This document shows, one piece after another, positions 10,037-36,091 of a stretch of DNA of 64,000 nucleotides. The notes beneath the pieces were generated by a model. The model was given only the letters and a program-made list of their open reading frames with translations, searched no databases and was not told the DNA's origin. Both the position numbers and the translations under genes were made by a program. Within the stretch, counting starts at the first letter, position 1, and every line of letters starts with the position of its first letter. The DNA comes from Psilocybe cubensis. Its lineage: Eukaryota. The stretch covers positions 186,001 through 250,000 of the forward strand of contig CM039008.1 in NCBI GenBank assembly GCA_017499595.2, in the 5' to 3' direction.

Positions 10037-13000
10037 TTGCCCACACTGTATACCGAATCGTCGCGGACCACTCGAGCGTCGACCCAACGACGAGAAGAGC
10101 TTGGATTACCCTCAGAGCTTGTTCCAGGCCTTACTGTTTTCCGCAAACCACGAACTGAACCCCAAGGTCCACCGCCGTCACCGTCTGCCTCATCAGTGAA
10201 TCTCAGCTTCTCAGATTCAGCGACCTCTAACTCAGAGGACGAAGACCATACCGACACACACACTCCCACCGCGATCAGCAATCCGATCAGAGATCGACGC
10301 AATCGCCGCAACCCTAGGTATCCCACCGTTGTCAGAGTCAAGATGCCAAACGATGACGATAAACCGCTCGCTACGGTTGTCCAAAATAAGATGAAGGACG
10401 TACCGATTCTCACACCAGGGAAGATTGATCCTCTGGTAATGCAGCAGTGGGCGGTTGCTTGCCGCAAATACATGAAGCATGCAGCGAAGTCGCCAAAAGA
10501 AGTTGTGAAGTTTGTGGCCGATGGAATGCAAGAACCAAGACTGGTGGCTTGGTATCAAGCAGATTCCACACGGATTGATGAACTGCCGCTGGAGAAATAT
10601 CTGGAGGAGCTTCAAGTGCTCGTGTTGGAGAAGAAGTGGGCTCACAAAGTCCGTGAACAGATCCTAACGTCCTATCAGGGCGACCGTATTTTCATCGACT
10701 GGAAGATCGAAATGGAGAATTTGAATGCGATCTTGAAGACGATGGCACCAGAGGGGTACGCCTTCCCCAATGAAGCATTGAAGATACAGCTCGAGTCACA
10801 CTTGAACCAGGAGCTTCGTGAGTCGCTCGGATTCGAGCCAGTCAAGGCCACCGAATTAGCCGCCTGGTCACTGGAAGTAAAGGACCGTGACGACCGCCTT
10901 CGTGAGGAACGTGCACGCACCCAACGTCAAATCGATGCGAGCTACGCAACACGAGTGGCTGCACGCAGGCTTGACAAGAAATCCTTGTTATTGCGTCTCT
11001 CGGATAGTCCAAATCCCAACCCTCGACCATCAAACAGCGAGTTCGATAATGGGGTGCGAAGGCCACTGTTACCTAAAATCACAGCAGAAGAACGTACATT
11101 ACTCGACAATCACAATGGCTGTACCAAATGCCGTCGATTTTACGTCAACCACCGCGCAAGGAACTGCCCAAATGGATGGCCAACAGCAAACGGATACAAG
11201 ACCCTTACAGAAGAGATGGCATTAAAGGCACAACGTGAGAAGGATGCCAAAGAGCAGGGCACTAGGAAGTCCTTGCCCGTGGGGCAAATCAATGCTTCCT
11301 CCTCATATACCGTGCATGACGAGGAGACAGATTCTGATTCGTACGTCCCTACCATGTCTATGACCGTTCCGCACCTCTTTCCAGTTATGGAGATTGAGGG
11401 GCCAGCGGTTGTGGATTTTCCTCTTCGCATTCGACCAATGCTTGATACGGGATCTCCTTCCACAGTGATTGACGAGACACTCGTCACCCAGCTCGGCCTC
11501 CCCCGATATCCACTACCACCCGCCGAGGACAATTTGTCATCGATTGACAATACACCGCTAGAATGCAGGGAGTATGTTAAGATTCGGGTTGCATCAGGAA
11601 ACGGGAGCTGGATATCACGGACACATAAAGCAAAGATTCATCAAAACCTATCTATACCGCTGCTACTTGGATTGTCATTTCTTTCCCCAGAAAATATAGT
11701 CATTGATACTCGGAAACGAACGGCTATTGATAAGCGTTCTGGATATGATTTAATGAATCCACCAACAAGAGATACTCTTGCTGCAAAGAGCACTGCTATC
11801 TGTGAGGGATTAAAGACGGACGCAGGGATAGATCAGGACAAACAGAGAAGATCAGCCATGGCAAAGGAACAACATCTGCGATCACAGGTCGAACCAGAGA
11901 GTGCAAAACAGTTGGTAGCAGCGATTAATGAGCAAATCAGCAACATTCAATTTCAGCAGAAGCTATTGCGCATGGACAAAGAAATGAAAGAGAAATATCG
12001 AGATCGCTTTCCTGACCGCCTACCAGACAACGTAGATATTCCTGATCACATATATCACCGGATACGATTGGTGGACAAAGACAAGATACATGCGGGTCGA
12101 GGATACGCTGCTCCAAAGAAATATCACGATGCATGGAAGAAGCTTCTTGACGAGCATCTGGCCGCGGGACGTATCCGACCATCCTCATCTGAATATGCAT
12201 CGCCAGCATTCTGCATTCCAAAGTATAAAAACGGAGTACCTGACCTGTCAGTACCACCACGATGGGTAAACGATTATTGGGAGATCAATAAGAACACTAT
12301 ATCTGACAAATTTCCACTTCCACGAGTAGATGACATTCTTGCAGACTGTGGAAAAGGCAAATTCTTTGCAAAATTAGACATGACCAACAGTTTCTTCCAA
12401 ACACGAGTACACCCAGACGACATTCACTTGACAGCTGTGCGTACACCATGGGGCCTATACGAATGGGTTGTGATGCCAATGGGCGGGAAGAATGCGCCAG
12501 CTACACATCAACGGCGAATGACAGATGCATTACGGGAACTCATTGCACAAGTATGTCACGTCTATCTAGACGATATTGTGATCTGGGCAGACACCTTGGA
12601 ACAACTATCAGAACGAGTAGAAAAGGTCTTGAAAGCGCTTCGGAAAGCGGGACTTTATTGTAATGCAAAGAAATCAGTCCTTTTTGCAACTGAAATTATC
12701 TTTCTGGGACATGTTATTTCCGCAAACGGCATTCACGCAGACCCTGCAAAGACAGACCGAATCAAGAAATGGCCACGACCAACAAACGCAACAAATGTAC
12801 GTGGATTTCTAGGACTCACAAGATATCTGGCTGTCTTTCTCCCTGCGCTCGCGGAACATACTAGCATCTTATCACCACTGACAAGCAAAGAATGCGATCG
12901 CGACTTCCCCAAATGGACCGCCGATCATGATCGAGCCTTTAACGCAATCAAGGAACTGGTTACAGGGGCGGAATGCCTCACTGTCATTGATTACGATGAC

Positions 13001-14971: not shown

Positions 14972-15023
14972 CGCCATAGAGAACAGACCCTTTCACAATG
15001 GAATTCTTCAGAGGGGGGAGGGG

Positions 15024-15322
15024 TGTAAGCCTGGAGACTTACCACACACGCAAACACGCACCGCAGGCGGACGCGCACAACAAAACGGCGCACAAACGCG
15101 AGCCCAGATTGGGTCTCGCTAATCAACTTACAAAGATATTGAGACCGAAAGACAAAAGGGAAACAAATGACCTTCGTTGCTTGACTAGAACGCTACGCAA
15201 CGAAGGTAAATATATTATAGTAATTTACTACACATCATGTATTGACTAGAACGCTACGCAACGAAGAGAGCGTTGTCCCTTCTGTTTCAGCGAGTGAGGC
15301 TGCCGATCCCGACAGCCTTCCA
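15024..15322 (+). repeat. 3' LTR of the chromovirus element
   Basis: Direct repeat of 9681-9979, preceded by the PPT GAGGGGGGAGGGG. Confidence 0.95.
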
Positions 15323-18300: not shown

Positions 18301-19410
18301 TCGTATCGACAGCATATCCCAAGCGAGCACTACGTCGGGAAATCCTACGAAGTCACCAACAAAACATTCATACACCCAGAGATCGAACATCACGATCACC
18401 CCAGCGACGCCGAGCATTACTTGCTTCCAACTGTGTTTACCATTCAGAACGGCGCTTCTGTGCTGGCCAAGTATCCTGGTCCTGGCGTCTATCATATCAC
18501 AGAGGGTCAGTATCTCTGAACACGACGTTATTCCCTTCCCGAACTCATCAAAATGTGATTGTATCAAGGCGAATGCCTTCTTGAGTACGTCACCGAGCCT
18601 GTGCACAGTACCACTATCAGCGCCGGCTCTGTTATTCACGTCGAAGAGGGTGCATCGATTTGCTGGATCTGCGGGTCGCCTTCTGGAGTCAAAGGTACAT
18701 CGGAGTTTTGATTTATATTACCCACCGCTCACAACTACATAGGCTTTGCGGCGTTCCATGTCCCGGTGTCTGTCAAAGGCATTGACGATGATGAGCTGTC
18801 GTGGCTCTATGCAGTGCACAACACAATAAGCACCAGCAAGTAACCAATATCAACGAGGCTCGGTAGTTGCGAGGCAGTTTTGAGGAGCAACCTGGCAAGG
18901 GTTTCGAAGCTCTCTGACGAGTGATATAGAAGGGGAACGCAGTTACGAAGTGAAACGAAGTCAAACGAAGTTTACGCGGTACGAAGTGAGAGACAAAGTT
19001 CGGGGGATCCAAAATCTCCTTCATTCCCTGCGGTATCGCACTACATAAGACAAAATTGAACCTATTCGAAGTACCTTAAGGAATTATAGCAATAAAATCG
19101 GAACATGAAAAGATCCTTGGCAAATATCATTCCAAAACAAACCAAATAGCAAGGGGAACATGAATTGAAAAGACGAATAAGTCAGTATGTACCTGGCACG
19201 AGGTTCGAACGCCATATCAGAGGTGAAACGAAAGTGATCGAAATCTGTGAGGGTTGAATCGAAAGAATGGTGAACCCCTAAAGCCCGAGTATGCTCGTAT
19301 GCTTCGAAAGGTAGCTTCGAAAACCGTGGTAAGGTCAAAAAGTATGCGTTTTCAGTGGTCAGCGCAGTTCGATGCTCATCATCTCCTCCCTACTGAAATA
19401 TTGACTGTCC

Positions 19411-22400
19411 TCAGTCATCGTTGCGAGCCTCTGCCATTCGAAGTCCTGGATCATTAACATCCTCATCATCCTCGTCCGGATCAATTATATCTGACTGCTC
19501 CATTTCGCGTAGACGTTTGGTGGTGATGTCAAGGAGTTTGTCGAGAGGTGGAATGGTTATCGAAGTACGTGCGAAGTATGGAATAACGCGGAATGCAGCA
19601 GTGGGACGGTGGAAAGCGGTACCATCGAGCTCTGCAAGAATATATGCACCTCCTTTGTTGCGCGAGATGACGATGAAGGGGCCGAGGTATCGAGCTCGCA
19701 TCTTGCGATTGAGGGCCTTTTCAATGGCAGTGTTCCTGATGAGTACGAGATCTCCGAGCTTAAAATCGAAGTTGCGAATGGTGTGAGAATGCTCTGTTTC
19801 GAAGCGGACGGCGGCCTTGACTCGAGCTTCATAGACCTTGGTTCGAAGTTCCTCGAGGTGTTCGTGACGTTTTTGAAGACTGATTGCACGACGAGCTATA
19901 AGGTCAGTTGTGGAGAGAATAGAATCCGGAGGGGGAAGAAGATAGTTAGCCTCTGCAATATCAAAGGGGAGAAGGGGTTGAGTTCCTGTAAGTCCGAAAT
20001 ATGGAGAACACCCAAAGCAACGCTTGATGGTGACTCTCTCTGACCAAAACACTGAATGAGTACCCATGTACCATTTCGATTCATCACCATCTACAGATTT
20101 GAAGAGAGCCTGTCGAACATCGAAGTGCGCGCGTTCAACGAGGCCGTTGGCTTGCGAGTTATAACCCGAAATGCGAATGTGTCGAATGTTGTACTTCTTT
20201 GCGAGGTAGGCACAAGCTTTGATGATGGCTGGCCCGTTATCGGTGACGATTTCAAGGAGAAGTCCATATCTGCAGATGAGATCTCTAAAGATAAACTCTC
20301 CAACAGTCTTGGCTGTCTCTCGACGAAGCATGGCGTATTCTGGAAAGTGAATGAGTGAACATCGAGCCTGGATGATATATCGAAAGCCTCCTGCCGGGGG
20401 AAGAAACATAGTATCGAGATAGACCTTCGAAAACAGGGGTGCAGGCATAGCGACTGTTGGAGGAATTAAAACATTCTGGGTGCGTCGAAGTTGGCATAGA
20501 TGACATGTGCGAACGAACCAGGCAACGTCAGCAGCCATTAGAGGCCACCAATAGCGCTCGGCGATAATAGCGTTTGTTGCGAAGAAGCCTCGATGTCCAG
20601 TATCCTCATGGCCCGAAGTTAGAATGAAGAGTCGACGATGCTGGGGAACTACAAGCTTATGTTTTCCTTGGGGATCCTTGCGCCAGAGACGATTCGAATC
20701 AATGAAGAACTCCGTGCAATACCTGACGAAGGTTTCGTAGTTAGAGTCGGACATGTCCGCAGGGCGTTCGAGAGTGGAAAGCCAGTCTCTGACTTTATGA
20801 AGACGTTCATCGGCGAGTACTGCATTATCGGTTCGAGGCACGATGCGATACGAGTCTTCAGGGGCTTGATTATCTTCTTTGTTGATTTCGGATGCTGGTT
20901 GTGAGGTGTCGATGTCGTTGGAATATATGAGAATGGGCGGTTGGTGAATTCGAGCTGGGGAAATGGGATTAATCATGTGAACGAAACCATGGAGCTTGTC
21001 GATCCAGTCTTCGAAGTCATCTTCGGGTTCGGGCTTGTCGCCTGGCTGCTGAGGTCTTCGAGACAATCCGTCGGGTCCGTGAAACGCACCGGGAACGTGC
21101 ACAAGGGTGAAATGAAATGTTAGTATTGCGACGATCCACCTGTTGATGCTGGCCGAAGGGGCGATATCGGGATTTGCAAGCATGCCCTTGATGTACTTCG
21201 CATCAACCTCGACGATGAGATTTCGAAGGCCAATGAGATAGTGCTTAAGTGCTCTGAAGGACCTAAATAAACCATAGAGTTCGAGCTTGGGCTGAGAGAA
21301 GCGGGATTCACGGTCGTTGAGTGTGATAGATCCAAAGCGAGTGATGTAGCGGATCCGGTGGTCATTAACGTCGCACTGGCTGAGGATATTCCCAATAGCA
21401 ATGTTCGAAGTGTCGACTGATAGAATGACGGGTGCTCCTGACTCGTGGTTGAGGGGCCGAAGTGCGGGTGAAGCAAGAAGAGCTTTCTTGAGGTCTTCCT
21501 GGGCTGATATTTGATGTGGTCCGAATTCAAAAGGGGCATCCTTCCGAGTGAGTTTCGTGAGGGCATGTGCTCAATGTGCGAAGTTACGAATGAAGCGGCG
21601 ACAAACACCTATAGTCCCTAGAAAGGCTCGGACTTCCGAAAGAGAGAAGCATGGGCCCCACTTGACGATGACATCGACCCTCTTGGTGTCTGGAAGTCGT
21701 CCTTCGTAAGTGCAACGGTGGCCCAGGACCGTGATCTCAGGAGCACAGAGAGTTGACTTGTAGCCAGAGAAGGTGCCGCCAGAGTACTTCATGCGTTGAA
21801 CGATACGATTGAGACCCTCAAAATGTTCCCAAACAAATCTACGAATGCCGGAGTTGGCCTCAATGGTTTCGAAGTCACCATTTGAAGTAATGTAGCGTGT
21901 TTCGGGACCTCGAACAGGGACATCGTCGATGTAAGGAATGGTGTATTTAGGAATTTCAGGTCGAAGGATATATGTAACATCGTCATGGAAAATAAGAACG
22001 GAATTAGTCCACCCCATAGGGAGAGTGGTGAGTCAAAGTGCGCCGAAGGGGGTTTGGAAGGTAGTGAGGTCTCGGGATGATTCTGTGATGGCTCTTTCGT
22101 CATATCCAACGTAAAGGTCAAGCATTCCTCCGCAGGCGCGAGCAGCAAAGTGTTCAGCAACATCCTCAGTGAAAGGGGGAACTCCGGAATGAGCGATGGT
22201 GACTGCATTGAGGGGCTCGAGAGACTGTACTATACGAAGGGAAGTCCCATCCTTCTTGACGACGCAGAACCAGCGGGATCGATAGGACGAGTTGGATGGT
22301 TCGAAGACTCCGGCATCAATCTTCCTTTGGATAAGCTCGCAAACTTGCTTATGAATTCCTGGGGGTATGGGGATGTTTCGAAGTACCCAAGGCTTGTGTG

Positions 22401-23286
22401 CGATGACTGGAATTTCGACTGGAGGAAAGAAGTCTTCACGAAAATGACCACGCTCTGTATCATTCCATGCGAAGACGTCGTTATGGAGTGTCATAAAATG
22501 ATGAAGGAGGTCGCGCTCGGCAGGCCAAAGGAAGTTGAAGTCGTTAGCTTTATCGAATTGGTCACGGCGTTCGGTAGTGTATCGTCCTCGAGGCTCAAAG
22601 GGTGGAGGTTGAGTGCTAAGTGTAGGGAGCTTTTCGAGTGGGTCGCCTTTAATGTTACGGATGATTCGAAACCTTTCTGGAACCTTGGCAATTACGGGGC
22701 GAACCTTCAAGGCAACTGGTTTGTATTTCTTGCGGGCTAGAAACGAGGAGACATTGGGAGATCGAGATTTAGGGCGCGAGTAGATCTTTGGAGGGAATAA
22801 GGTTGCGATATTATGTTTCGAAACAAGAGGTGTTGCCGTCGAGTCTGAGATGTTAGGTTCTCCGTAAGGCAGAGAAGTCGATGGCATAGTCGGAATATTG
22901 TACATGGGAGAGGAAGTGGAATTCGAAGGTTCCGAGCTGATAGAAGATCCAGAGGGTAAAGAAGACGATGATGGCTTTGGTATGGTACAAGGAGGTTCTG
23001 GAGCAAGTAAAGAAGTTGTCGAGGAACTGGATGGGACTGCGGTCGAAGGTCTGGGTGGATTAGTGGTATTAAGAAATAGATTAGCGAAGGCCGGAACAGA
23101 CTTGAGATCAGAATTGACAGGAATGGAGAAGAGATCACAAGCAGTAAGATAAGATCGAGCGTAGTCTGGATTCGAGGAGTCTAGTAACTGGTAAGCTTTG
23201 ACATGAGGTTCACCGTGTTCGTTGAGGGTGATAGAGAATGCTATTTCGCCCTCGTGCTTATCTAGCTCCTCTATTCCCGAAAATTT
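19411..23286 (-). pseudogene. Pol (RT, RNase H, integrase) of the minus-strand Gypsy element, with internal stops
   Basis: RT segments SRWFCVVKKDG, LDLYVGY, LPMGW and YIDD; integrase HEDTGH...CHLC, TDNG, NGLVER and YLGPF; in-frame TGA stops at 22033 and 21571. Confidence 0.9.
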
Positions 23287-25550
23287 CCAGAATGGTGTTG
23301 GCACAAATGACTTCGGGGGGGACCGCGAGGAGAGGTCGGGACTGTCGAAACCTTTCCTGTATTGGGGTCGTGGACAGTGATGGTTTGGTGTTCGTTAGCA
23401 TAATTTCGAATGACACTTTCTATCAACACATCAAAGGGCCTTCCAAGCAGGATGTCGTATGCTGGAGCTCGAATAACGTGCACTTGCATGTAAAGTGTTA
23501 TGTCGCCGATGAGAAAGGGTACATTTCGAGCTAGTCCGAGAGATCTATCGACACTGCCATTAGCTGATTGCATTCGAAGCGTAATGGTAGGATCGTAGGT
23601 GATTCCGAGGTCGAGACAAACTTGTTCGGACATTGCGATGATTTGACTCCCAGGATCAATGATACATTCGACCTTCATGTTGTTGTCGATGAGGGGGAAG
23701 ATAGAACGAAGTGCAGCAGATTCCATTGCAACAACAAGGCGATTAGGATCAGGTTCTTCACCCGGTCGAAGGGAGCGATAGTAGGTTTCAAAATCGTCCT
23801 CGATGATTGTGGCTCCGATGGGTGGGCTTCGATGTTGACTGTTAGCAAGGGCATAGGTGCGGAGTGGAGGTGTGGAGGTCTGCTGAGTCTCGGGTGCGGA
23901 ATGTGACGCTTCATCTTCAACGAATGTAAGTTGGGCAGTTCCCTCCTTTGCATTGGGTTGACGTTTGGTGGTGGTAGCTTCGCGATATTGATTACGAACC
24001 TCTGGAGAAAGGGATAGAAGTTCGCGCTGAGTGATGGTGATGGGGGCATTGAGGGAACGGCTGTAAACGGACTCCGCAACCACAGGATCATGAATAGGGG
24101 GAAGGGTTCGATAAGCCGCTTCGGGTTTCTTGGGGTTCGCGGGTTTCGGAGCTGGTGCGCCTACGTTCCTATCACGGGGAGGGGCATATGACGCCTCCGG
24201 AACATTTAGATAAGGGTGTTCAGGGATGGGCGCTGGTGGCTGAGTGGGTGCAATAGGCACCGAAGGAGTTTGTGGTGGAGGTGACTGTTCACGAGTGACA
24301 GCAGGTGGTTCCTTGGACTGAGGCAGTGGCTCATCCTTGGGCTCGACAGCAGTATCTCGATTGCGCTGGGCACGAGTGCGAATAATGGGTGTGAAGTCAG
24401 GACCACGAGCTCGAAGTGCAAAGAGTTCTGCTTCGAGGGATGCGATTCGATCGGAGGCAGAGAGCTGATAAGTGGGTTGGAACGCAGTAGGAATTAGAAT
24501 GGTTTGCCCTGATGAGTTCGAAGTAGCAACAATTGAATGCATAAGTGTTCCTGTGCTAAGCTGATTGGGGTTTCGGCGGTGCCACTCGTCGATGCGATCC
24601 TTCAGGAGAGTGCCTGGAATGTCTCGAGGTACGAAGGAGTTTGAAGGGAGAACTACCTTGCCTTCGATGTTGCGTTTGCACTTGCCAGCACGGATGTACT
24701 CATCGACGTGCTCGCATTCACGAATGTAGTGATCCTTGCCACAGAAATTGCAGGCGCTGTTTGGGTTTCGAACACCGGTGGAAAAGGATGCAGCTCTAGG
24801 AATCGAACGGTTCTGACCAATGGCTTCGACAATGGACTTGGTAAATTCTGAGAGGATCGAGGTAAGGTTTTCAGCTTTGATTGTGGGTTCCGAAACGATA
24901 GATGGGGTGGTTGAAATGGCAGTTGCATTGTGATGTCCCAATGACGCTCCCTGAAGGACCCAATTCGCAGCTTCAAAGATTTCGTCCACAGTGTGAGGCT
25001 TTGCAGGATCGTGGTTGGGGTATTTGACTTGGAGGCGATTGGCAACTAGAAGCCAGAGCTGCGATTGGAATCCCCTGATGTAGAAGCGAGACTGTTCTAG
25101 AGAAAAGAGGTATTCTTTTGAAATGAGAAATGTGGATATAACAGTGAATTGTCAATGATAGTTGGCGAGATCCGAAATAGAATTAATGCCTAAACGCTGT
25201 TGGGTGCCAATGAGAAGATCGAGGTCCGTCATCGAATACTTCTGCTTGTCTGAAGCATCAGGATAGAGACCCTTTACGTCGTCCTTGAAGTCGACAAATC
25301 TCTTGGTGACGTCGGAAAATGATTTGAGAGTCTCCCAGATGTCTGCAGTATCAACATCAAGAAAACGAGTGGTGTGCTTCTTCATTTGCGTTTCGTCAGT
25401 GATCTGGGCACGTTCAAAGAGGAACTCAAGTTCGGCGAAATATCTACGAAGCTCTCGAGGCTTCAATGGATCGAACTGAGGTGCGGAGCAATCTCCTCGA
25501 GCAGGCATAGGAATTGGTGCGGGTACTGTTGCAGACATTGTTGAAGGCAA
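23271..25550 (-). pseudogene. Gag-protease of the minus-strand Gypsy element (internal TGA at ~25152)
   Basis: Gag N-terminus APQFDPLKPRELRRYFAELE; Zn knuckle CNFCGKDHYIREC; protease IIDPGSQI...ILLGRPF. Confidence 0.88.
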
Positions 25551-26907
25551 ATACGGAACGGTGTCGGAAAGGTCGAAAGGATTTTGGCCGATGGCAACGA
25601 GTTCGTTGAGGAGAGCAAGATTCTGTGCACTTTCAGCTGCAGCTCTAGTTGCACTTCGAAGTTGACGATCTGTAGGGGGTGCAATATAACGAGTGCGAGA
25701 GCGACGAGTGCCAGAAGATGCAATTTTTGATGAAACCCGTCGCGGTGGGCTCCAAAATGATGAGCTGTCGTGGCTCTATGCAGTGCACAACACAATAAGC
25801 ACCAGCAAGTAACCAATATCAACGAGGCTCGGTAGTTGCGAGGCAGTTTTGAGGAGCAACCTGGCAAGGGTTTCGAAGCTCTCTGACGAGTGATATAGAA
25901 GGGGAACGCAGTTACGAAGTGAAACGAAGTCAAACGAAGTTTACGCGGTACGAAGTGAGAGACAAAGTTCGGGGGATCCAAAATCTCCTTCATTCCCTGC
26001 GGTATCGCACTACATAAGACAAAATTGAACCTATTCGAAGTACCTTAAGGAATTATAGCAATAAAATCGGAACATGAAAAGATCCTTGGCAAATATCATT
26101 CCAAAACAAACCAAATAGCAAGGGGAACATGAATTGAAAAGACAAATAAGTCAGTATGTACCTGGCACGAGGTTCGAACGCCATATCAGAGGTGAAACGA
26201 AAGTGATCGAAATCTGTGAGGGTTGAATCGAAAGAATGGTGAACCCCTAAAGCCCGAGTATGCTCGTATGCTTCGAAAGGTAGCTTCGAAAACCGTGGTA
26301 AGGTCAAAAAGTACGCGTTTTCAGTGGTCAGCGCAGTTTGATGCTCATCAACGAGTTCATCGTTAAGGAGTGAAACGTTGACCGTTTTTTTGAGTAGCCT
26401 TTGGCTTCCCTGAAAAATTTCCTTTTGATACAAACTTGAAAGTTGATAAACCCAATATACTTTCGTAAATTGACTTGAAAATACGCTGATATTCAAGTTT
26501 CGTTACCTTAAACTGTTTGATGAAGCATTAAGCCTGAGAAATTCCCAACAAGGATAACAAATATTTGATGAGCCTATGCAAGTTTAGATCTGTAGTACCT
26601 CGTGTGGCTATCCTCACTGACCTCCAAATTCGGATCATCAGACATCTTAAATTCGTATTCTGAGGCCATATATTTGTGAAGGAATAGACATCATATATAC
26701 CTTGACATTTGACAAGATAGCTACAAATAGTTATATGTAGTGTAACTATGATGTTCCGTTATCCATGTACTCTATTGGACAGATATGTCAGAAAGATAGT
26801 GCTGGATGATAACCTTACATCATCTGACAGGCCACGATAATATATAACACGCATTAACATTTGGGTGAGAGTCAATCACCATCTACTCTCCGTAACCCTT
26901 CATAAAA

Positions 26908-29900
26908 ATGCCTAAGGTGCGTTATTGTTTGACAGTAAAACCTCATACCATGTTCACTGTGAGTTTAATAGCATATCACAAGCGATCAGTACATTGGAAA
27001 CCCTCACAACCTTTCAGCCAAAGGGATCATACATCCTGATATTGAGCGACATGACCATTCTGGAGATACAGATCGTTATCTGCTCCCCACGCTCTTTGCG
27101 GGAGAGCAAGGAATTGTCATTACTGCTAAATATCCTGGGCCAGGAGTATTTCACATAACTGAAGGTGAGGACTCTATACCGCATAGTAATGGAGTAATTT
27201 GACTTGTCGCACATAGGTGAATGGCATGTTGAGGACATGGCTCAGCCGGGACACACTACCCTGTTGAAACCTGGCTCCGTGTTTCATGTGGAGGAGGGCT
27301 CAATTATTCGATGGAATACCAAATCACCTACTGGCGCAAAAGGTTATTTGACTTATTAAATTAAAGGTGTACCTTCTCTAATTTAATTATAACGCTCAGG
27401 TTTTGCAGTATTCCACTACTACTTACCACCTTATATGATATATACTGACTAGATTTCAGCACAACCTCATGTAAATCTGTCAGTGAATAAAGATATGAAA
27501 AATTGTGGTAAATAAATGAGATATCCTACCAGCCATTTATCAAAAAGCTGTGACACTTTTCATTCAATGCCAGCCCCATTTTTCATTCAATGCCAGCCCT
27601 ATTTTTTATTGGATGCCAGCCATATTTTTCATTGAATATCAGCTGAATTTATCATTGGATGCCAACCAAATTTTTCACAGAATGTCAGCCGAATTTCTCA
27701 TTAAATATCAGCCGAATTTCTCATTCCATGCCACCCACTTTTCTCATTCAATGCCAGCCGTATTTCTCATTGGATGCCAGTATCATTTAGATTACTTAAT
27801 GGCTGCATCATTCTTTCTAGATTACTTAATGAAATGATCTTGATGTCATTGATCTGATTAGAATTAGGCTTTGGACCATCATTGATGGACATGACATCAT
27901 GCTCAATTAGGGTCCTGGGCTTTTCCCTTTGCCTCGGCCCCTGGCTCTATAAATAGTGCTCATCCTATGCTACTTTTGTGCATTGCTGGCAATGGATTGG
28001 GCGCTTTTGGGGGCATTTCTGGACCGTTTTCCTTGGTCTCTTTTGGTATACCTATAGTTATAAAGTGTCCCAATCCGAATCTGAAATCAGAATTGCAATA
28101 TCTTTACTCATTATTGTGCAATTAAGTGTGCGATGTTTTGGTCAAAAAGCGCACCTTGAATAGCACCCTCCAGGGGTGGGTATTCACCCTTTTGACCATT
28201 CCATTATTTTTTATTTATGTTAGACAGAGTACATGCCAAGTTTTAGCTTAATTGGAGCAGTGGAACCTATTGAACTAGAATGTGCACCCTACCCCTCCTC
28301 CTACCCCTTGTACAAATGCCTTCCTGATCAGATAAATTCAGGCCCAACCAGGGCTGGGTAGGCATCTATTATACCAATTTTTAGAGCCCAAGATCTTGGT
28401 GCAATTCCAAGATTTAAGGGTACTACCCCCCACTCCCTCCAGAACTTGTGTATTTTATTATACCATAGGATGGGCTCTCAGACCATTAAAAAACATGTAG
28501 ATCTACTAATAACAGGACATAGAGTCCAAAATCTACCCTTAAAAACCCTCTGCAGCAAGGGAACATACTGATTCAAGGAGGGGTATGAGGACAGGTATGG
28601 TAGGTTATTGATTAGGTTATATCTCTACAAATACTTCTTTGTAAATCATATTCTTGACGTCTACAGATACCTATAGTTGCCCCCTAACTATCATTCTCAA
28701 GGTGCAAAAAGATCCGTCCATGATATGAGATGCTGCAGAGGGAATACCATTCTTTATCAAAATGCACAGTATTTTCGCATTTACCATATATAAATGATCA
28801 TAATCAGAAAATATAAAAGCAGGATAGTATAGCCCCAAAATGTAGCTTTCCATAACATTAATGATGTTGTGCATTGGACCAGTGGTTGTCGAGATATGGA
28901 AAGAAAGGTGTTGAAGAATCCATCAGAGACCCGGATGGATATTGGCCTTTATTTATGCTTTGTTTGTGGTCACCTCTTTGGCCTTTCTCCGAGATACATT
29001 TTGACATATCTCAGCTCATACTCATCGGATTTTCATGAATTTATATACCACAGATAGGTGTCATTTGGGGCTACACAACCGTATCATATTTGTATTTTTT
29101 GGGTGTTATCTTGCCCATCATATTTCGCCTTTTCGCTATTTTTAGACAATTTTGCTTATTCTTCTTGTACAATTTTGTGAGGTGCTCTGGCTGTTTAGCA
29201 CACTGAATATAATATGTAGAGGACCATAATAGCTCTCAGTAGATGTATAATATGAGGATTTTGGTGAAGTATAAGCGGTGATATGCTCATATTAGGGTGG
29301 AAACCTAATGTCTTTTTGTTGACCTCATAACCAAGGTGTTCTTCTTTATCTAGAATGTTTCAAAGGTATGTATTGCGTTTCTGGTACTGTGTAGGACAGG
29401 TTTACATACTTATATGTACTGGAGATGTCCATTCTATCCTGTAATAAAATATATAATTTCTGGAGGGAATAGAGAATGGTACCCTTCAATCTTGGAATTT
29501 AATTGAGATTAAGGACTCTAAAAATTGATATAATGGGCGCCTAACCAACCCTAGCTGGGCCTGAATTTATCTGGTCAGGAAGGCATTTGTACAAGGGGTA
29601 GGAGGAGGGGTAGGGTGCACATTCTAGTTCAATAGGTTCCACTGCTCCAATTAAGCTAAAACTTGGCATGTACTCTGTCTAACATAAATAAAAAATAATG
29701 GAATGGTCAAAAGGGTGAATACCCACCCCTGGAGGGTGCTATTCAAGGTGCGCTTTTTGACCAAAACATCGCACACTTAATTGCACAATAATGAGTAAAG
29801 ATATTGCAATTCTGATTTCAGATTCGGATTGGGACACTTTATAACTATAGGTATACCAAAAGAGACCAAGGAAAACGGTCCAGAAATGCCCCCAAAAGCG

Positions 29901-30545: not shown

Positions 30546-31624
30546 TTTAACCGATCCATATGGAAGTGAATAAATATCCAGATTGTAAACCAGAGTTTGT
30601 GTTTGACCTACCGGCTGATTACTTTCAGTCCGCTCCTCAACAATACAGTCCGCGATTCGCAGTTGTCATTTAAGACTCCGCTCGAATATGCTCACACAGT
30701 AAATGTGCACGGGCCATTGTGGGAACTTCAACTTGGCTGGAAATTTGTCTCATGGTATTTTGGTCTGTACATCTAAATCGACATTCTTTTTTGGGGGCAA
30801 AATGTCCAATCCATCTTTGCATATCCTTTGAATTTGCAGGAGTAACCTATGGTCGCCAATCAGTACTTGATATTTAAGGAGGTGAGTTATATTGCTATCA
30901 TTGAGTACCCCAAGCTAATCTTCCCAGTACGTTGTGTTTATACAAGTCGATACTTTTTGTTCGTACTGCTTTCCCTTATATGCCTCATGAGACTGCTATT
31001 TCGGGCACGTCGTTTATGCTTCTATTTCATTAGCGGACAAAGAACAGCCAAAATCGAACTCAGAATGGCAGAACGTCAGTATTTGTGCTAGATTAGCTGC
31101 TTTGAGAGCACACGAACTCAATTCATCCTGGGCAACGTCAGTCGGAGACGAATTATCCAATTCATGAGAAGATGCGGAAGCCGCGAAGTGTGATATTCGT
31201 CTCCACCTACCCCTTCTAATTTACATAATAGAAACACATAGTTCGCTGTCCGAAGTGCACGAAGGTTGTCATAGATCACGTATACTTTCCAAATGATGCC
31301 CTGTACTATGATGTATTTAACATTTCATTTCCACAATGAAGGTCAAATTTGGTCAAATATGAACAGCATATACGCCACTGTGTCCCAATTTGTGTGCATG
31401 GTCTAATAAAAGTTCAGGAAGTAATTTCAATGCGGATACTCTCGCAGTTATATGGGGTTTAGACAGATATTAAAGGCTAGAAGGGCGTCACCTGCACACC
31501 GGTCTAGTCATGCATCCGAAATGATTCAGATATTGGCGTGGAATCAGTTCAGGCTTCATTAAATCTATAAAAGAGACATATATTTGTGCGTACATTCATC
31601 TCTCAAACAATAACCCGAGTCTCA

Positions 31625-32205
31625 ATGCCCAAAGTAGGCTTTACAAGCGTGTTAACCAGGTTTAAAACATTGATCGTCGTCTCTTGCACAGCACATTCCA
31701 AGCGAGCACTACGTTGGGAAGCCCTACGAAGTGGCCAGCAAAGCCTTAATTCATCCACATATCGAACACCATGACCATCCTGACGACGCAGAGCATTATC
31801 TGCTCCCAGTAGTGTTCGCTGTTGATAAAGGAGCCTCCATACTCACCAAGTATCCTGGCCCGGGTGTCTATCACATCACCAAGGGTGAGTGACGCGAAAC
31901 AGACTGTTTTCTCCTACCCATTAACAGCCTGTATATTTTACCAAGGCGAGTGCATCCTTGAATACGTCACCGAGCCTGTACACAAGACCGTCATAAGCAC
32001 AGGCTCTGTTATCCACATCGAAGAGGGTGCGTCGATTCGTTGGATCTGTGAATCAGAAGCAGGACTCAAAGGTACATTTGAGCTTTGATTGCTCCTATTC
32101 ACGGCTCATAATTACACAGGCTTCGCGGTATTCCATGTTCCGGTGTCTGTCAAGGCTATGGAAAGGAATGAATCGTGGACAGTAATAGACAAGCACTCAA
32201 CATGA
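31625..32205 (+). CDS. EutQ-like cupin, array copy 7 (divergent C-terminus)
   Basis: MPK|HIPSEHYVGKPYEVASKALIHPHIEHHDHPDDAEHYLLPVVF...KYPGPGVYHITKG|ECILEYVTEPVHKTVISTGSVIHIEEGASIRW...K|GFAVFHVPVSVKAMERNESWTVIDKHST*. It lacks the family DEFxV end. Confidence 0.8.
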
Positions 32206-32554
32206 TCGTGGAACTTGTTTCAAGAAACCTATTTTAATGAAGAAACTACATCGTTTGCGTTGATATATTTAAAAATTGACCTACGGCACTATATCTTGAA
32301 TAGGCCAGGAAAGCGATAGAAGACAGTATCTTGTCATTTGACAATGTGACCAGCTGTACGAACCATTAGCTTGATGTCAGGGTACGTATTGGTGCCACCC
32401 CTATCCGTTATCGTTATCTGTTACGGTCCCACGCTGTCATGCCTTGTTCTATCTTTGTGTTCGGTCCCACGTCTATCGTTCTCCTGTTTCATCTATTGAT
32501 AGTTGTCATATGTCGAGTACTCTGGTCCGGGAAGTAGTTACTCCGGTCTCCATG

Positions 32555-32664
32555 TATATATAGGGTCCTGGGGTCAGTAGTCAGACCCCAGCTTCGATAT
32601 CAACTTGGTCTTTGGGCACTCTTCTCTCTTGACTTAAGTCGATTCCTAACAGCATATCGAAGCT
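32555..32664 (+). promoter_or_regulatory. LTR TATA box plus putative self-priming pair
   Basis: TATATATA at 32555-32562. AGCTTCGATAT (32590-32600) is the exact reverse complement of ATATCGAAGCT (32654-32664), which lies at the PBS position just after the LTR. Confidence 0.75.
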
Positions 32665-32742
32665 ACCCAACGTTGCCCTGGTACTCTATCCACTGCAGCG
32701 CTCGTCTACCCCACTCTACCTTGCCCCCACCTACTATACTCT

Positions 32743-33639
32743 ATGGCTGACCCTCCTTCGCCTTACGATGGGTTCATGACGATGTCTCTCGACGACCGTT
32801 TCGCCCTCCTCTTTAGGGCACAGCAAGTCCGGTTTGACGCTGATAAAAAGGTTGATGACCAACTGTCTGCCATCGAGTCTAAACTCGAACGCCTCACAGC
32901 CTCCCTACCCAAACCGCCTGCCGCTCCCACTCCCTCTGCTCGCGCACCTCGCGCTCGACGCACCTCTAGGAAGGAACGCCCGGCTGCACCTACCTCTACC
33001 CCTACTACAGGGCCCCCGCACTCCCAATCCATCCGCTCTACCACTACCAAAGCCGCCCTCGAGAAGATCGTCGCTACCCTGTCTATTGCGGACGAACAGG
33101 CTGGCCACGTCATAGGGCGCGCGGGAACTGGCTTACGCCAAATCCACGACATCTCGCATGCAAAGATCTCAGTCTCCCCCGTCGTCACCTCCGGTTTGCG
33201 TGCCGTCACTATCAGGGGCACCGCTCGTGAAGTCGGTGATGCTCTCTCTGCTATCGGCAAGCGGATTGCCCGTCGTCGCATCCGCAACCCTAGGTCCAAG
33301 AAGCCTAAACAGCCTCCTGCGCCCACTGCTGCCCCTCCTACCCTCGTCGTTGAACCTCCTTCTCCTACTCCAACCTCGAGCTCTACCCCAACTACGCGGA
33401 CATCCCGTTCCGGGACGGCTTCTCCGCACTCGCCCACTCCTACGGCTGTTGACACTCGCTCCAGCCCATCCTCGTCGCTCGCCCCTGGTTCGCCTATGGA
33501 GGTGGACGCTCTCAGGGCTCCGCAGCAACACTCTGACGGTTACTCTCGCCCCGGGCCAGTTCAGCCTAGGGAGGGAATTCAGACCGCGCGTCGTGGCGGT
33601 GGACCGCCTCGTGTCTTTGGTGCAAACCGTCCACGGTGA
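32743..33639 (+). CDS. KH-domain RNA-binding protein (298 aa) inside the mini LTR element
   Basis: Intronless ORF. Type I KH pattern TLSIADEQAGHVIGRAGTGLRQIHDISHAKISVS...RAVTIRGTAREVGDALSAI with the GxxG loop intact; helical or coiled-coil-like N-terminus; Pro/Ser/Thr/Arg-rich flanks. Confidence 0.85.
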   Translation: MADPPSPYDGFMTMSLDDRFALLFRAQQVRFDADKKVDDQLSAIESKLERLTASLPKPPAAPTPSARAPRARRTSRKERPAAPTSTPTTGPPHSQSIRSTTTKAALEKIVATLSIADEQAGHVIGRAGTGLRQIHDISHAKISVSPVVTSGLRAVTIRGTAREVGDALSAIGKRIARRRIRNPRSKKPKQPPAPTAAPPTLVVEPPSPTPTSSSTPTTRTSRSGTASPHSPTPTAVDTRSSPSSSLAPGSPMEVDALRAPQQHSDGYSRPGPVQPREGIQTARRGGGPPRVFGANRPR

Positions 33640-34060
33640 AGACCAGGTCGTTGGGACACCGACCTTTAGAGGGGAGGTGATGTCAGGGTACGTATTGGTG
33701 CCACCCCTATCCGTTATCGTTATCTGTTACGGTCCCACGCTGTCATGCCTTGTTCTATCTTTGTGTTCGGTCCCACGTCTATCGTTCTCCTGTTTCATCT
33801 ATTGATAGTTGTCATATGTCGAGTACTCTGGTCCGGGAAGTAGTTACTCCGGTCTCCATGTATATATAGGGTCCTGGGGTCAGTAGTCAGACCCCAGCTT
33901 TGATATCAACTTGGTCTTTGGGCACTCTTCTCTCTTGACTTAAGTCGATTCCTAACACTTGAGAAAATAATCTGTCGAGTTTTTCTTACACGATATAAAG
34001 AGCCTAAAATCTTTGGACGAGACTCCAATCGCCATCTAAACTTCATATTCATTGATTAAC

Positions 34061-34612
34061 ATGCCTACAGTGTGTTTCCATTCGAATGTCATCAACAATT
34101 CTGATCGAAAATTTAATAGCATATTACAAGCGACCAGTACATTGGAAATCCCCGCGAAGTCTCACCTAGGGGTCTCATACATCCTGACATTGAGCGTCAT
34201 GACCATTCTGCGGATACAGATCGTTATCTACTCCCTACGCTCTTTGCTGGAGACAAAGGAGTCGTCATTACTGCCAAATATCCTGGACCGGGAATCTTTC
34301 ACATAACTGAAGGTGAGTCCCCTTGCTTAATGGTAATGGCATGATTCTACTCAACATAAATAGGTGAATTTCATGTTGAGGATACGTCGCAGCCGGGGCA
34401 TACTATCCTGTTGAAACCTTAGGCTCCGTGTTTCATGTGGAAGAGGGCTCGGTTATTCGGTGGAACTGCGAATATCCTTCTGGTGTCAAAGGTTAATTAG
34501 CTTTTAGAGGCAGATATTTCTTTGCTAATTCAATTTCGAACAATAAGGTTTTGCGGTATTCCATGTCCCGACGTCAATCAAAAGCGTCGATGAATTTATA
34601 ATCTATGATTAG
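34061..34612 (+). pseudogene. EutQ-like cupin, array copy 8, frameshifted
   Basis: Closest to copy 6 (HITSDQYIGNP...HPDIERHDH). Exon 3 reads AAACCTTAGGC versus AAACCTGGC in copy 6, a 2-bp insertion that creates TAG at 34420-34422. Confidence 0.82.
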
Positions 34613-34711
34613 TTGAGCGGAGCTTAAGAAGAAGGCAAACAAGTAGTCAGATATCAATCAGAATTTTGATTAATAGTTATATGGTCAATACCTTCCATCC
34701 GTTCTTCACTA

Positions 34712-34924
34712 CACTGCTGGCGCTGATACATATTTGGTAGAAAAATATGTATTGGTAATTATGTTTCCTGTTGGTTTTTGACGTGTTTTTCTCGTATATA
34801 GAGTCCGGGGTTACCCAATTAGGGAAGCCCGAAGCCTATATTCCAATAAAATACGTCAAAAAATATAGGAAACATAATTACTGGGTCTTATTTTCTTTGA
34901 AAATATGTATGAGCGCCAGCGGTG
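34712..34924. mobile_element. 213-bp MITE with CACTG-type ends
   Basis: TIR CACTGCTGGCGCTGATACATATTT versus CACCGCTGGCGCTCATACATATTT; 3-bp TSD CTA (34709-34711, 34925-34927). Confidence 0.8.
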
Positions 34925-35063
34925 CTACCTTGGCTGGCCAGTGCCGAAAGTCTGCCCTAATGTGTATTTTCCCACATGACACCCGATCGTCACATCCAGG
35001 TCACATCACAGGCCAATGTTCACATTTGTTTTGATTGTCATGCTACGAATAATCCGGAAAAAA

Positions 35064-36091
35064 TTACGCTGCCCTCCTCTGTTGACCACTAATTAAATAA
35101 ACAGCTGCCCTCATCTCCAACAAAGGGTCTTCGCTGGGCTCGACTCCTTTGATCCTTGGAATCGGATCGAAAATGATGTATTTCTCCTCTTTCTTGCTCT
35201 GCGCTTCGTCCATCAACTCTTCAATTCGCACAACCCCCAGTTCTATCAATTGACGCTCTTCAGGCCAGTGAACAGTCGCGTCATCTGTGATATCACCCTC
35301 TTCTGCGATTTGTGCGACGAGTTTGAAGGTGAAAGGGCCAGACCCAGTGGGGGAGAGACGAGTAGAGAGCTCGTCGTGCAGGTAATTGTGACCCTTCGTT
35401 TTCGTCTCTTCTGATGATAGAACGGATACCTCATTTTCGGGGACAAACCGATATCGCACATAGGTCTCTATGCCCTCGGAACTGACTAATTTGACAGCTG
35501 TGACACCGAAGTATACATCTGACGCGAAACTTTCTGGCGCAGGCTTCGGCGCTTGCACGAACTTGACAGTAGCCGGGTGCGAAGCCAGGAACTTCTCCAC
35601 AGGTGAGGGCGACTCTCCTCCAGCTCCAGATGCCTCCACCGCTTTCAAGAACTCCAGAAACTCGGCACCTGTTCTCGTAGGGAAGAAAGGCGTCGAGTGT
35701 GCAATGATATCTGTGTGTACCCGCCTCCCATTAGCGTCCAACCCAAGGTTGAAGCGTACGGCGATTCCACGAGGGTCTGCATTTCCGTCGTTATCAGGGA
35801 TATTGGGAATGCCCGTGGAGTTGGAGAAGCGGACTATGATGGGAGTGGAGGCAGCATGGAAATGTGGGGCGGAAGAGAGGGTTGCGGCAGCAGCAGACGG
35901 GGTAAATGTGCCTGTCAACAAGAATCCTTTCGCGTGTGCTAACAGAAAAGATTTTGGTATGTGACTCTCTATGTTTATGTCTTGCAAGACGTACCAGGTC
36001 GCATGCCTGCATGTTTTCCAAACAGCTTCTGTAATTGTTCAACGAGGTCGCTGCTTGTCTGGATGATGAATTTGTCGGTTGGGAACGGCAT
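35064..36091 (-). CDS. Catalase-related (SrpA-like) heme peroxidase, 2 exons
   Basis: MPFPTDK...FGKHAGMRP|AHAKG (distal His), VRFSN, DPRGIAVRF, FDPIP, and proximal Tyr motif DPLLEMRAAVY. Confidence 0.9.

Follow-up and report, generated by a model that had tools for sequence, protein, structure and literature searches.

How does a mobile element that encodes none of the proteins of its own replication manage to spread, and what use could it have for the single, seemingly unrelated protein that it does encode? This question is raised by a short LTR element lying in the window analysed here, a stretch of 64,000 nucleotides of Psilocybe cubensis DNA (contig CM039008.1, positions 186,001–250,000), since the only gene of this element codes for a KH-domain protein. 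Non-autonomous LTR elements are usually viewed as non-coding shells or gag-only deletion derivatives. We found no paper on a KH-encoding LTR element; a Repbase entry, lying beyond the literature covered, may exist.

The element occupies positions 32375–33957 (1,583 bp), and all of its features described below are on the forward strand. It is bordered by two copies of the target site duplication (TSD) CTTGA, at 32370–32374 and 33958–33962, the same 5-mer lying outside both LTRs. The 5′ LTR (32375–32651; TGTCAG...CCTAACA) and the 3′ LTR (33681–33957) are direct repeats of 277 bp with TG..CA ends, identical at 276 of 277 positions. Their sole difference is a C at 32595 versus a T at 33901, the latter falling on a CpG site within the primer block discussed below. 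A search of the 64-kb window with the first 25 nt of the LTR gave exactly two occurrences, a number reached in none of 100 shuffles. Between the LTRs there is an interior of 1,029 bp (32652–33680), 87% of which is filled by one uninterrupted ORF running from ATG to TGA (32743–33639) and encoding a coiled-coil plus KH protein of 298 aa (P0001). A polypurine tract (PPT; AGAGGGGAGG, 33668–33677) ends 3 nt before the 3′ LTR. Such an anatomy, with TG..CA repeats, a TSD together with insertion evidence, a primer binding site (PBS) and a PPT, is that of an LTR retrotransposon, and it agrees in every detail with the initial annotation (277-bp LTRs, 5-bp TSD, PPT, 1,029-bp interior and 298-aa KH ORF). 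The reverse transcriptase (RT), RNase H and integrase of an autonomous LTR retrotransposon are absent: a Pfam search of the KH ORF returned KH_1 only, and each of the other listed ORFs of at least 50 aa either overlaps the KH ORF in another frame or strand or sits in a flank. An Rfam search of positions 32300–34030 gave no match at E ≤ 1, and a tRNA scan of the 64-kb window found no genes.

The copy in the window is young, and its insertion is polymorphic between isolates. Two other DNA data sets extend over the flanks, and both lack the insertion at this site; the absent stretch measures exactly 1,588 bp, corresponding to the element (1,583 bp) plus one TSD copy (5 bp). The empty-site joint (32369 to 33958), at which five letters fit either side and a single TSD copy is present, was recovered from run X14, in 18 raw DNA reads, and from run X1, in one contig of 6,998 nt. 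Read depth in run X14 was ~300–455 over the interior versus ~23–42 in most flank bins, pointing to roughly 12 copies. Between 214 and 244 reads of this run cross the LTR edges into flanks, where consensus agreement is merely 0.37–0.40, and many insertion sites must therefore exist. LTR depth was 1.3 to 2.5 times the interior depth, which fits two LTRs per element, although 1,834 reads match both LTRs and make solo LTRs inseparable in this figure. Beyond the copy in the window, no fewer than 10 full-length paralogues carry the name Psilocybe cubensis; counted together with it, there are 11 distinct paralogues of 298 aa, on contigs of six different sizes (3.05–4.68 Mb). Moreover, Psilocybe cubensis gene models labelled “K Homology domain-containing protein” or “hypothetical protein” match the ORF at 90% identity or more, and because of this identity they probably stem from copies of the KH element. 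Overall, the locus almost certainly belongs to a non-autonomous mobile LTR family, which is apparently active now; the empty site, the copy number and the many different flanks bear out the earlier claim of a real, multi-copy and recently mobile element.

Is the KH gene a stable part of this family, or was it picked up once? The protein has 38 relatives among 90% clusters and 375 representatives at E ≤ 1e-3, the more distant of them being named in Psilocybe cf. subviscida, Agrocybe, Dendrothele and Termitomyces. Intact relatives are known as protein predictions only, with their DNA context unseen, but two metagenome contigs (L001 and L002) represent diverged relatives with a matching layout, in which a KH ORF is followed by a PPT and a homologous LTR. 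In L001, a KH frame without ATG lies between a truncated 5′ LTR and a 274-bp 3′ LTR; in L002, a decayed KH frame is followed by the PPT and the LTR. Thus, this order holds directly in three of three DNA loci, with ~40–100 nt from the ORF to the PPT and LTR. It is also important to note that this sample of DNA loci is small: L001 and L002 were the only relatives among at least 600 metagenome pattern matches, while 34 pattern matches in IMG/VR viral contigs contained no relatives. In the ESM Atlas, two basidiomycete KH clusters scored 0.84 and 0.79, below the 0.9 mark for anything more than a lead. The LTRs of the window, L001 and L002 share the start TGTCA, a block CCCCAGCTT(C/T)GA(T/A)ATC(A/G)ACTTG and the end ACA. 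Both the LTR ends and the R-start block of the 5′ LTR are conserved in L001 and L002, as is the succession of a purine run, TGA and the LTR start TGTCA.

The KH codons 104–180 of the window and L001 differ by a dN of 0.161 and a dS of 1.067, giving a dN/dS of 0.15 in this one pairwise comparison, for which dS is near-saturated. The substitution pattern shown here points to purifying selection on the KH domain between lineages. However, decay is even among the genomic copies, with C>T and G>A changes predominating, and amino-acid changes among these copies amount to 0.156 per residue in the KH domain versus 0.083–0.186 elsewhere. The KH domain is not spared within the genome, so that selection is visible only between lineages. 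Together with the layout of the three loci, the between-lineage value indicates that the KH ORF has been kept by the family, not acquired once, and the diverged LTR-borne relatives contradict the earlier option of a one-off captured host retrogene. The element is best explained as one member of a long-established family of small, non-autonomous LTR retrotransposons in mushroom-forming fungi.

The KH assignment itself, which had been proposed from the GxxG motif, was upheld by profile and fold comparisons. Pfam KH_1 (PF00013) matched residues 112–171 of the protein (E 7.5e-9; 35.7 bits versus a cut-off of 21.5), and a profile search against PDB retrieved PCBP1 KH3 at E 2.4e-9. An AlphaFold2 model built on 31 aligned sequences places a long helix at codons 16–53 (32788–32901; block pLDDT 85–93) and a KH domain at codons 109–177 (33067–33273; block pLDDT 85–96), with the beta-alpha-alpha-beta-beta-alpha succession E109–116, H117–124, H126–138, E141–144, E152–159 and H161–177. 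With a profile above the cut-off, this fold and the loop G125-R-A-G128, the domain belongs to type I; every one of the 31 aligned family members has a KH_1 match and both glycines of the loop. The best Foldseek matches were hnRNP K KH3 and PCBP KH1/KH3, including PCBP2 KH3 (TMt 0.85–0.90, rmsd 1.3 Å), and all of the ~30 matches shown, each with E below 0.001, were KH domains, although identity to the nearest solved ones is only 20–33%. In the model, the long helix at the N-terminus is joined by a basic, disordered linker to a single KH domain like those of PCBP and hnRNP K, after which the chain continues as a disordered tail rich in Pro, Ser and Thr. Each of the six short family members read likewise begins with a helix-forming stretch and has a tail of this Pro/Ser/Thr-rich kind, and the C-terminal part carries the short conserved motifs SPM-x-VD and RPG...QTA(R/K)RGG. 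A dimer prediction for residues 1–60 scored 0.02 versus a mark of 0.32. Type I KH domains bind single-stranded RNA or DNA, and extrapolating from the nearest solved ones, we infer that the protein may bind C-rich RNA.

None of these results connects the protein with Gag. Its Pfam search gave no significant RT, integrase, protease, Gag or zinc knuckle, no Gag or zf-CCHC match was found in P0001 or in any of the 31 members, and the AlphaFold2 model contains no capsid-like fold or helical bundle. Searches for longer relatives of the whole protein or of residues 1–103 returned none, which counts for little, and a comparison of the protein with the Gag-Pol of both autonomous elements in the window revealed no similarity. 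Consequently, the suggestion that the N-terminal helix is a Gag-derived segment found no link to lean on. Among 11 single-KH members scanned with Pfam, nine had KH_1 only, P0006 had no match, and P0154 combined KH with esterase and zinc-finger hits; in the multi-KH proteins P0113 and P0115, every family above threshold was of the KH type.

How, then, might reverse transcription of such an element begin? Two nucleotides past the 5′ LTR there is a candidate PBS of the self-priming type (ATATCGAAGCT, 32654–32664), which matches, as a reverse complement without any mismatch, 11 nt within the LTR (AGCTTCGATAT, 32590–32600). This putative self-primer begins at the predicted transcript start (32590), 35 nt after the start of a TATA-like box in U3 (TATATATAG, 32555–32563) that may act as the promoter. 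An 11-nt complement between LTR and PBS was reached by 7 of 5000 shuffled LTRs. In L001, primer and PBS are complementary over 13 nt with the same geometry: in both loci the primer lies 62–64 nt from the LTR end and the PBS starts 2 nt after the LTR. A C:G pair in the window is replaced by T:A in L001, this covariation consisting of a single compensated position in the only two loci that carry both primer and PBS. No other part of the LTR is as well conserved across the three loci as the primer block, and in L002 a TATA-like box precedes this block by 36 nt. The stem formed by primer and PBS closes the minimum-energy fold in both the window and L001 (fold z-scores −2.9 and −4.2). No TGG adjoins the 5′ LTR, so that the PBS is not a standard one for a tRNA 3′ end. 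Self-priming, in which the PBS complements the 5′ end of the mRNA from the same element, is described as shown for Tf1 and proposed for Tj1 (PMC4600332). Judged from its sequence, the complementarity between PBS and LTR is the signature of Tf1-type self-priming, and the element probably uses this mode, with its transcript predicted to start at 32590. The PBS had been overlooked in the initial annotation.

Downstream of this start, the predicted leader (32590–32742; 153 nt) is C-rich (35% C), contains no upstream ATG and carries four C-runs of 3–5 C each, at 32666, 32676, 32709 and 32724. The sense strand of the element is likewise 35% C.

The element encodes neither enzymes nor capsid, and these must therefore come in trans. 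A Gypsy-type helper is plausible because a PBS of the self-priming kind has been described in Tf1-like members of the Ty3/Gypsy group. This part of the earlier helper claim stands, while the hope of matching LTR ends was disappointed for both autonomous elements of the window. An intact chromovirus (9681–15322) and a Gypsy-type element (18788–26056) were each considered as the helper and rejected: their LTR ends differ, they lack the self-priming complement (no LTR/PBS complement of at least 8 nt), and they show no protein similarity. As regards other neighbours, four of four pieces of a flanking repeated gene family had no Pfam hits. Run X16, guessed to be RNA, has reads on a neighbouring 213-bp element and none on the KH element, an observation that has no bearing on expression.

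Such evidence induces us to propose the following scenario, in which we infer the transcription start, the self-priming, the class of the helper and every function of the protein. Transcription would start ~30 nt after the TATA box of the LTR. The first 11 nt of the RNA would then fold back onto the complementary PBS just past the 5′ LTR and prime reverse transcription in the manner of Tf1, with RT, RNase H, protease, integrase and capsid protein all supplied in trans by a self-priming Ty3/Gypsy-type helper. During translation, the KH protein may bind the C-rich RNA of its own element and either steer it into the particles of the helper or protect it. Taken as a whole, this picture of a young, self-primed, helper-dependent copy whose KH protein serves as an adaptor for its own RNA has a little better than an even chance of being right. 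That the KH protein is needed for the element's own spread seems to us somewhat more probable than the full scenario. Its specific role as a cis-acting RNA-binding or packaging adaptor is a tentative proposal, to which we would give less than an even chance.

Several other readings have to be weighed against this scenario. The KH gene might be a host gene riding as a passenger on a TRIM-like element, playing no role in transposition and kept through the youth of its copies or through some benefit to the host. The evenly decaying KH domain of the genomic copies, its ordinary cellular PCBP/hnRNP K type and the presence of multi-KH proteins among the weaker matches (E ~1e-11) would all suit a passenger. 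However, the ORF is common to three LTR-borne lineages, two of which have diverged to a dS above 1 with a KH dN/dS of 0.15, and across so great a distance, decay would be expected of a useless ORF carried by a non-autonomous element. In addition, the single-KH layout of 31 of 31 aligned relatives and the N-terminus and tail shared by the six short members are unlike multi-KH proteins, and we regard a passenger gene as unlikely. Much the same low probability is given to a KH protein that acts on the host or the helper, shielding RNA from silencing or decay, boosting translation or competing with the helper RNA. Long disordered regions beside a KH domain are a typical feature of post-transcriptional regulators; the lack of a predicted capsid-like fold fits such a role as well, and the two C-terminal motifs could be docking sites. 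Yet all of the results that show retention of the protein are common to this reading and to the adaptor role that we favour.

Less probable still is the possibility that the KH protein is the Gag-equivalent of an autonomous lineage, so that the 1.6-kb elements would be internal-deletion derivatives of a helper encoding the same protein. Non-autonomous LTR elements often arise from helpers by deletion and keep gag, as in BARE-2, and gag and pol can be separate ORFs, in which case protein searches would not show a KH “gag” of ~300 aa as part of a fusion. Nevertheless, no protein longer than 875 aa occurred among the best 150 of 375 matches, none of the 11 single-KH family members scanned had a Pol or Gag domain, and no capsid-like helical bundle was predicted. 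The close spacing of ORF, PPT and LTR in all three DNA loci also speaks against this reading, whereas the two empty searches for longer proteins add little. Priming may be questioned in a similar way: a cellular RNA such as a tRNA fragment could be the primer, leaving the LTR/PBS complementarity incidental. Some LTR elements, such as copia and Ty5, do prime from internal tRNA fragments, the start at 32590 is a prediction, and a few shuffled LTRs reach the 11-nt complement. An incidental match is hard to reconcile, however, with a complement at the same two positions in L001, including the compensatory change, with the strong conservation of the primer block in three loci, with its distance of 35–36 nt from the TATA-like box in the window and L002, or with the missing TGG next to the LTR. 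We thus consider cellular-RNA priming improbable, to about the same degree as the Gag-equivalent.

With Ty3/Gypsy elements of the Tf1/Tf2/Tj1 type, the KH element shares TG..CA LTRs, a 5-bp TSD, a PPT and a PBS complementary to an LTR stretch at the predicted 5′ end of the transcript; the primer of Tf1 is 11 nt long as well. Unlike them, it is only 1.58 kb in length and has one KH ORF in place of Gag, protease, RT, RNase H and integrase; having no RT, it lacks the RT/RNase H of the Tf1/sushi lineage that cleaves the RNA duplex in self-priming elements, and RT phylogeny cannot assign it a place. TRIMs, LARDs and gag-only elements such as BARE-2 likewise combine two LTRs, a PBS, a PPT and a TSD with a lack of enzymes, and for the KH element this lack implies a similar dependence on a helper. 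LARDs are large elements with no coding capacity and BARE-2 has retained gag, whereas the gene kept here is no retroelement gene at all. TRIMs are described as shorter than 1,000 bp and encoding no protein (PMC10886601), while the KH element, at 1,583 bp and with an intact, conserved 298-aa ORF, falls outside that description.

At the protein level, the differences from Gag and capsid are the lack of a Gag profile, of a CCHC knuckle and of capsid-like helical domains. In both sequence and structure, the KH core, with its intact GxxG loop, is matched best by PCBPs and hnRNP K, but these are host genes with three KH domains, and the protein described here combines a single KH domain with a long helix at its N-terminus and extended disordered tails and lies between LTRs. 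LINE-1 ORF1p, described as a homotrimeric RNA-binding protein (PMC10202459), similarly has a single RNA-binding domain behind a helical N-terminal region, along with disordered parts, and is encoded by the RNA on which it possibly acts. In contrast to ORF1p, our protein has a KH domain instead of an RRM and belongs to an LTR element and not to a LINE, and no homology between the two was detected. The resemblance would be one of functional analogy only, although the architecture appears nearer to ORF1p, with its coiled-coil oligomerisation and RNA-binding domain, than to Gag.

Our results describe a family that keeps a cellular-type RNA-binding domain under apparent purifying selection without any canonical retroelement protein. 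A family lacking replication enzymes while keeping a KH gene suggests an undescribed way to exploit a helper element. It is tempting, although we would give this less than an even chance, to suppose a distinct class of coding parasitic LTR retroelements without Gag and Pol, whose own coiled-coil and KH protein would coat or tag their RNA in cis and smuggle it into the particles of a helper. In the world of LTR elements, that protein would correspond to LINE-1 ORF1p, having arisen independently from a cellular KH domain of the poly(C)-binding type and persisted throughout the Agaricomycetes. Being small and apparently active, with a clear self-priming signature, the family is testable. If the proposal is true, the KH fold would join the RNA-binding modules recruited by retroelements, and a parasite of a parasite would have a different route by which to compete for the machinery of its helper.

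By its structure, the KH element (32375–33957, plus strand, 1,583 bp) is an LTR retrotransposon. The near-identical 277-bp LTRs described in the initial annotation were borne out: the direct repeats (32375–32651 and 33681–33957, plus strand) start with TGTCAG, end with CCTAACA and show a single difference, C at 32595 versus T at 33901. This mismatch is a CpG site within the primer block discussed below, and post-insertion deamination would be its simplest reading. The LTR start sequence occurs twice in the 64-kb window, both times in the LTRs of this element. Also confirmed were the 5-bp target site duplication (TSD), CTTGA on both flanks, and the polypurine tract (PPT), a plus-strand purine run AGAGGGGAGG ending 3 nt upstream of where the 3' LTR begins. 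The 1,029-bp interior (plus strand) is indeed almost filled by a single intact ORF, 32743–33639 from ATG to stop, encoding the 298-aa protein P0001. In Pfam, P0001 matches KH_1 at residues 112–171 (E 7.5e-9, 35.7 bits, cut-off 21.5), and the scan returned no other domain of note, as the initial annotation had supposed.

TRIMs, according to PMC10886601, are by definition shorter than 1,000 bp and non-coding; at 1,583 bp and with a 298-aa ORF, the KH element is not one of them so defined. Nor is it a gag-only derivative. Placement in Ty3/Gypsy by reverse transcriptase (RT) is impossible for this element. Among the papers listed by full-text literature searches, none describes a KH-encoding LTR element.

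Public reads and contigs from four runs were mapped on window positions 31300–35000. The flanks were covered by two runs, X14 (DNA reads) and X1, and the insertion was absent in both. The empty-site joint, 32369->33958, is supported by 18 raw DNA reads in X14 (12 start places) and by one 6,998-nt X1 contig spanning both flanks. It omits 1,588 bp, made up of the element itself (1,583 bp) and a single copy of the TSD, with five letters compatible with either side. Precise excision is not known to occur for LTR elements; since the empty site is present in X14 and X1, the KH element is an insertion polymorphism at this site.

The initial annotation had supposed a mobile family, and multiple copies at differing sites are seen by depth, in diverse flanks and as full-length paralogues. 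Because X14 depth (read directions summed) is ~300–455 over the ORF versus ~23–42 in most flank bins, X14 contains roughly 12 copies at a likeness of at least 90%. From the LTR edges, 214–244 X14 reads lead outwards with a flank consensus agreement of merely 0.37–0.40, therefore indicating many distinct insertion sites. The 90% cluster of the KH ORF has 14 members, the named ones all from Psilocybe cubensis. Eleven, the window copy counted, are distinct 298-aa sequences, 94–99% identical and spread over contigs of six different sizes (3.05–4.68 Mb). Shorter or decayed versions exist as well, among them chimeric gene models like P0006 and sequences of 275, 246, 245 and 73 aa.

The KH element lies between two tandem members of a repeated gene-like family, ~100 bp 5' of an ATG at 34061. 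Members of this family (4953–5358, 18309–18785, 26964–27354, 31684–32162, 34112–34581 and 39545–39780) are 60–85% alike and have no match in Pfam; ...HPDIE.HDH... and GSV.H.EEG are examples of what is conserved among them. Terminal inverted repeats, CACTGCTGGCGCT... / ...AGCGCCAGCGGTG, bound a 213-bp element at 34712–34924, which has CTA on either side. Its depth is ~30 times that of its flanks, it is missing from this site in X14 and X1 (joints 34695->34925 and 34708->34925), and it is covered by a contig from X16, presumed to be an RNA run. It resembles a polymorphic, high-copy MITE whose TSD is 3 bp long and which may belong to PIF/Harbinger. An apparently intact chromovirus (9681–15322, plus strand) has 100% identical 299-bp LTRs, GTAGA on both sides, a single open frame of 1,659 codons that encodes RVT_1, RNase H, Integrase_H2C2, SH3_Tf2-1 and Chromo domains, and a T-rich stretch where a primer-binding site (PBS) would lie. 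A second Gypsy-type element (~18788–26056, minus strand) has 100% identical LTRs of at least 300 bp and a coding region distributed among several frames (aspartyl protease, DUF4100, RNase H, integrase); TTTGGAGCCCACCGCGACGGG, 3' of its 5' LTR, looks like a tRNA-type PBS. Ordinary fungal genes are represented by a HET (heterokaryon incompatibility) domain frame (619–2328, plus strand) and a catalase-like frame (35064–36038, minus strand).

In the AlphaFold2 model of P0001 (31 aligned sequences, mean pLDDT 66.6), a long helix (residues 16–53, block pLDDT 85–93) leads into a basic linker, Pro-rich and disordered, then a KH domain of beta-alpha-alpha-beta-beta-alpha topology (residues 109–177, block pLDDT 85–96) and lastly a disordered tail. 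The KH identity was corroborated by Foldseek, whose listed matches are KH domains throughout, headed by hnRNP K KH3, PCBP1 KH1 and PCBP2 KH3 (TMt 0.85–0.90, rmsd 1.1–1.6 Å), and by the family profile, which matched PCBP1 KH3 in the PDB at 2.4e-9. The proposal of a Gag-derived N-terminal helix found no support: neither the model nor the listed Foldseek matches contain a capsid-like domain, and P0001 shows no similarity to Gag-Pol from either of the nearby autonomous elements. Judging from structure entry titles, the closest solved KH domains bind C-rich single strands, and the sense strand of the KH element is 35% C, with four runs of 3–5 C in its leader; on these grounds, we suppose with modest confidence that the KH protein binds its own RNA. 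The closest system in working principle is LINE-1 ORF1p, a homotrimeric RNA-binding protein according to PMC10202459, although its fold and element class differ.

HMMER, run exhaustively with the KH protein, retrieved 375 representatives at E<=1e-3, of which 83 reached E<=1e-10 and 20 reached E<=1e-30; at E<=1e-12, nearly all were single-KH, mostly of 250–350 aa. Named relatives came from Psilocybe cf. subviscida, Agrocybe pediades, Dendrothele bispora and Termitomyces. A domain scan of 13 matches comprised 11 single-KH family proteins (nine with KH_1 alone, P0006 with no match, and P0154 with KH, esterase and zinc-finger matches) and two multi-KH proteins (P0113 and P0115), which had KH-type families alone above threshold. 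Three relatives of ~760–780 aa (P0133, P0151 and P0166) carry the N-terminal helix motif of the family and a single KH, after which come 450 aa of low complexity and a C-terminal segment that is conserved.

At the DNA level, two LTR-borne relatives, L001 and L002, were present among the metagenome matches listed. The 1,969-nt contig L001 begins inside the 5' LTR, which ends at 173, and continues with a 312-codon open KH frame without ATG (242–1180), a purine run and a 274-bp 3' LTR (1231–1504). In L002, a 274-bp 3' LTR (704–977) is preceded by a decayed KH frame, AAGAAGGGGG and TGA. The three 3' LTRs align from a conserved start, GGTGA followed by TGTCA, to the end ACA, and share the block CCCCAGCTT(C/T)GA(T/A)ATC(A/G)ACTTG. 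Since PPT and LTR directly follow the KH ORF in 3/3 loci, there is no room for pol. The association of the LTR with the KH ORF is old. The translation of L001 positions 1505–1969 reads by eye like the RNase H portion at the C-terminus of a Copia-type pol (...HIDIRHHF...ADVLTKAL...), suggesting that this KH element is nested in another retrotransposon.

TGG is absent directly 3' of the 5' LTR of the KH element. Two nt past this LTR, ATATCGAAGCT (32654–32664) is identical to the reverse complement of AGCTTCGATAT (32590–32600, within the LTR), which starts 35 nt downstream of TATATATAG, a TATA-like box in the LTR, at the expected (predicted) transcript start. L001 shows equal geometry and distances, its pair AGCTTTGATAT with ATATCAAAGCT carrying a compensated change and extending complementarity to 13 nt; in L002, known from its 3' LTR only, AGCTTCGAAAT lies 36 nt downstream of its own TATA-like box. 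An 11-nt complement arose in 7/5000 shuffled LTRs, the leader's minimum-energy fold is closed by the primer/PBS stem in the window as well as in L001 (z-scores -2.9 and -4.2), and the two autonomous elements of the window have no self-complement of at least 8 nt. Self-primed reverse transcription is defined with reference to Tf1 in PMC4600332, where Tj1 is a proposed further case. The KH element bears what reads as the sequence signature of self-priming, and, given a predicted transcription start, it quite likely uses it; the alternative would be priming by a cellular RNA. The leader, predicted at 153 nt, lacks an ATG, so that of the ORF would be the first in the predicted RNA.

What is shown are the sequence features; a helper, RNA binding and a benefit are inferred. 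Under self-priming, transcription would begin at about 32590, and the KH protein would be made from the element RNA and then bind the same RNA in cis. The 11-nt RNA 5' end would fold back onto the PBS, helper RNase H would cleave it to yield the primer for cDNA synthesis, and the RT, integrase and particle of the helper would perform the remaining steps, integration leaving the 5-bp TSD. The KH protein may alternatively be an anti-silencing or regulatory factor, or the counterpart of Gag in an autonomous lineage not yet seen. Of the aligned family members, 0/31 carry a Gag or Pol domain.

Nei-Gojobori counts on a single pair, window versus L001, gave the dN/dS sought for the ORF: 0.15 for the KH core (codons 104–180; dN 0.161, dS 1.067) and 0.29–0.47 for helix, linker and tail, where dS is saturated or nearly so. 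Among the 11 full-length paralogues there are 45 distinct replacements, with C>T or G>A in 35 of the 42 mappable, and their density per residue is 0.156 in KH versus 0.127, 0.083 and 0.186 elsewhere. In X14, 280/374 variant places are C>T or G>A, flank strain differences included. Because replacements are equally dense on KH and mostly C>T or G>A, inserted copies decay neutrally in a C:G>T:A-biased process. Such decay would suit a rival reading, the KH gene as a passenger gene. In lineages still spreading, the KH domain appears intact by the one comparison of window and L001, a pattern expected if the KH protein matters for propagation.

One of the scanned proteins, P0154 (613 aa), has two KH domains, a weak N-terminal coiled-coil-type profile match, weak GDSL-esterase matches under the Pfam cut-off and a weak CCCH zinc-finger match. 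Its layout presumably resembles that of esterase-type LINE ORF1 proteins. If P0154 is indeed LINE ORF1-like, KH domains would have been put to use by a retroelement a second time, independently.
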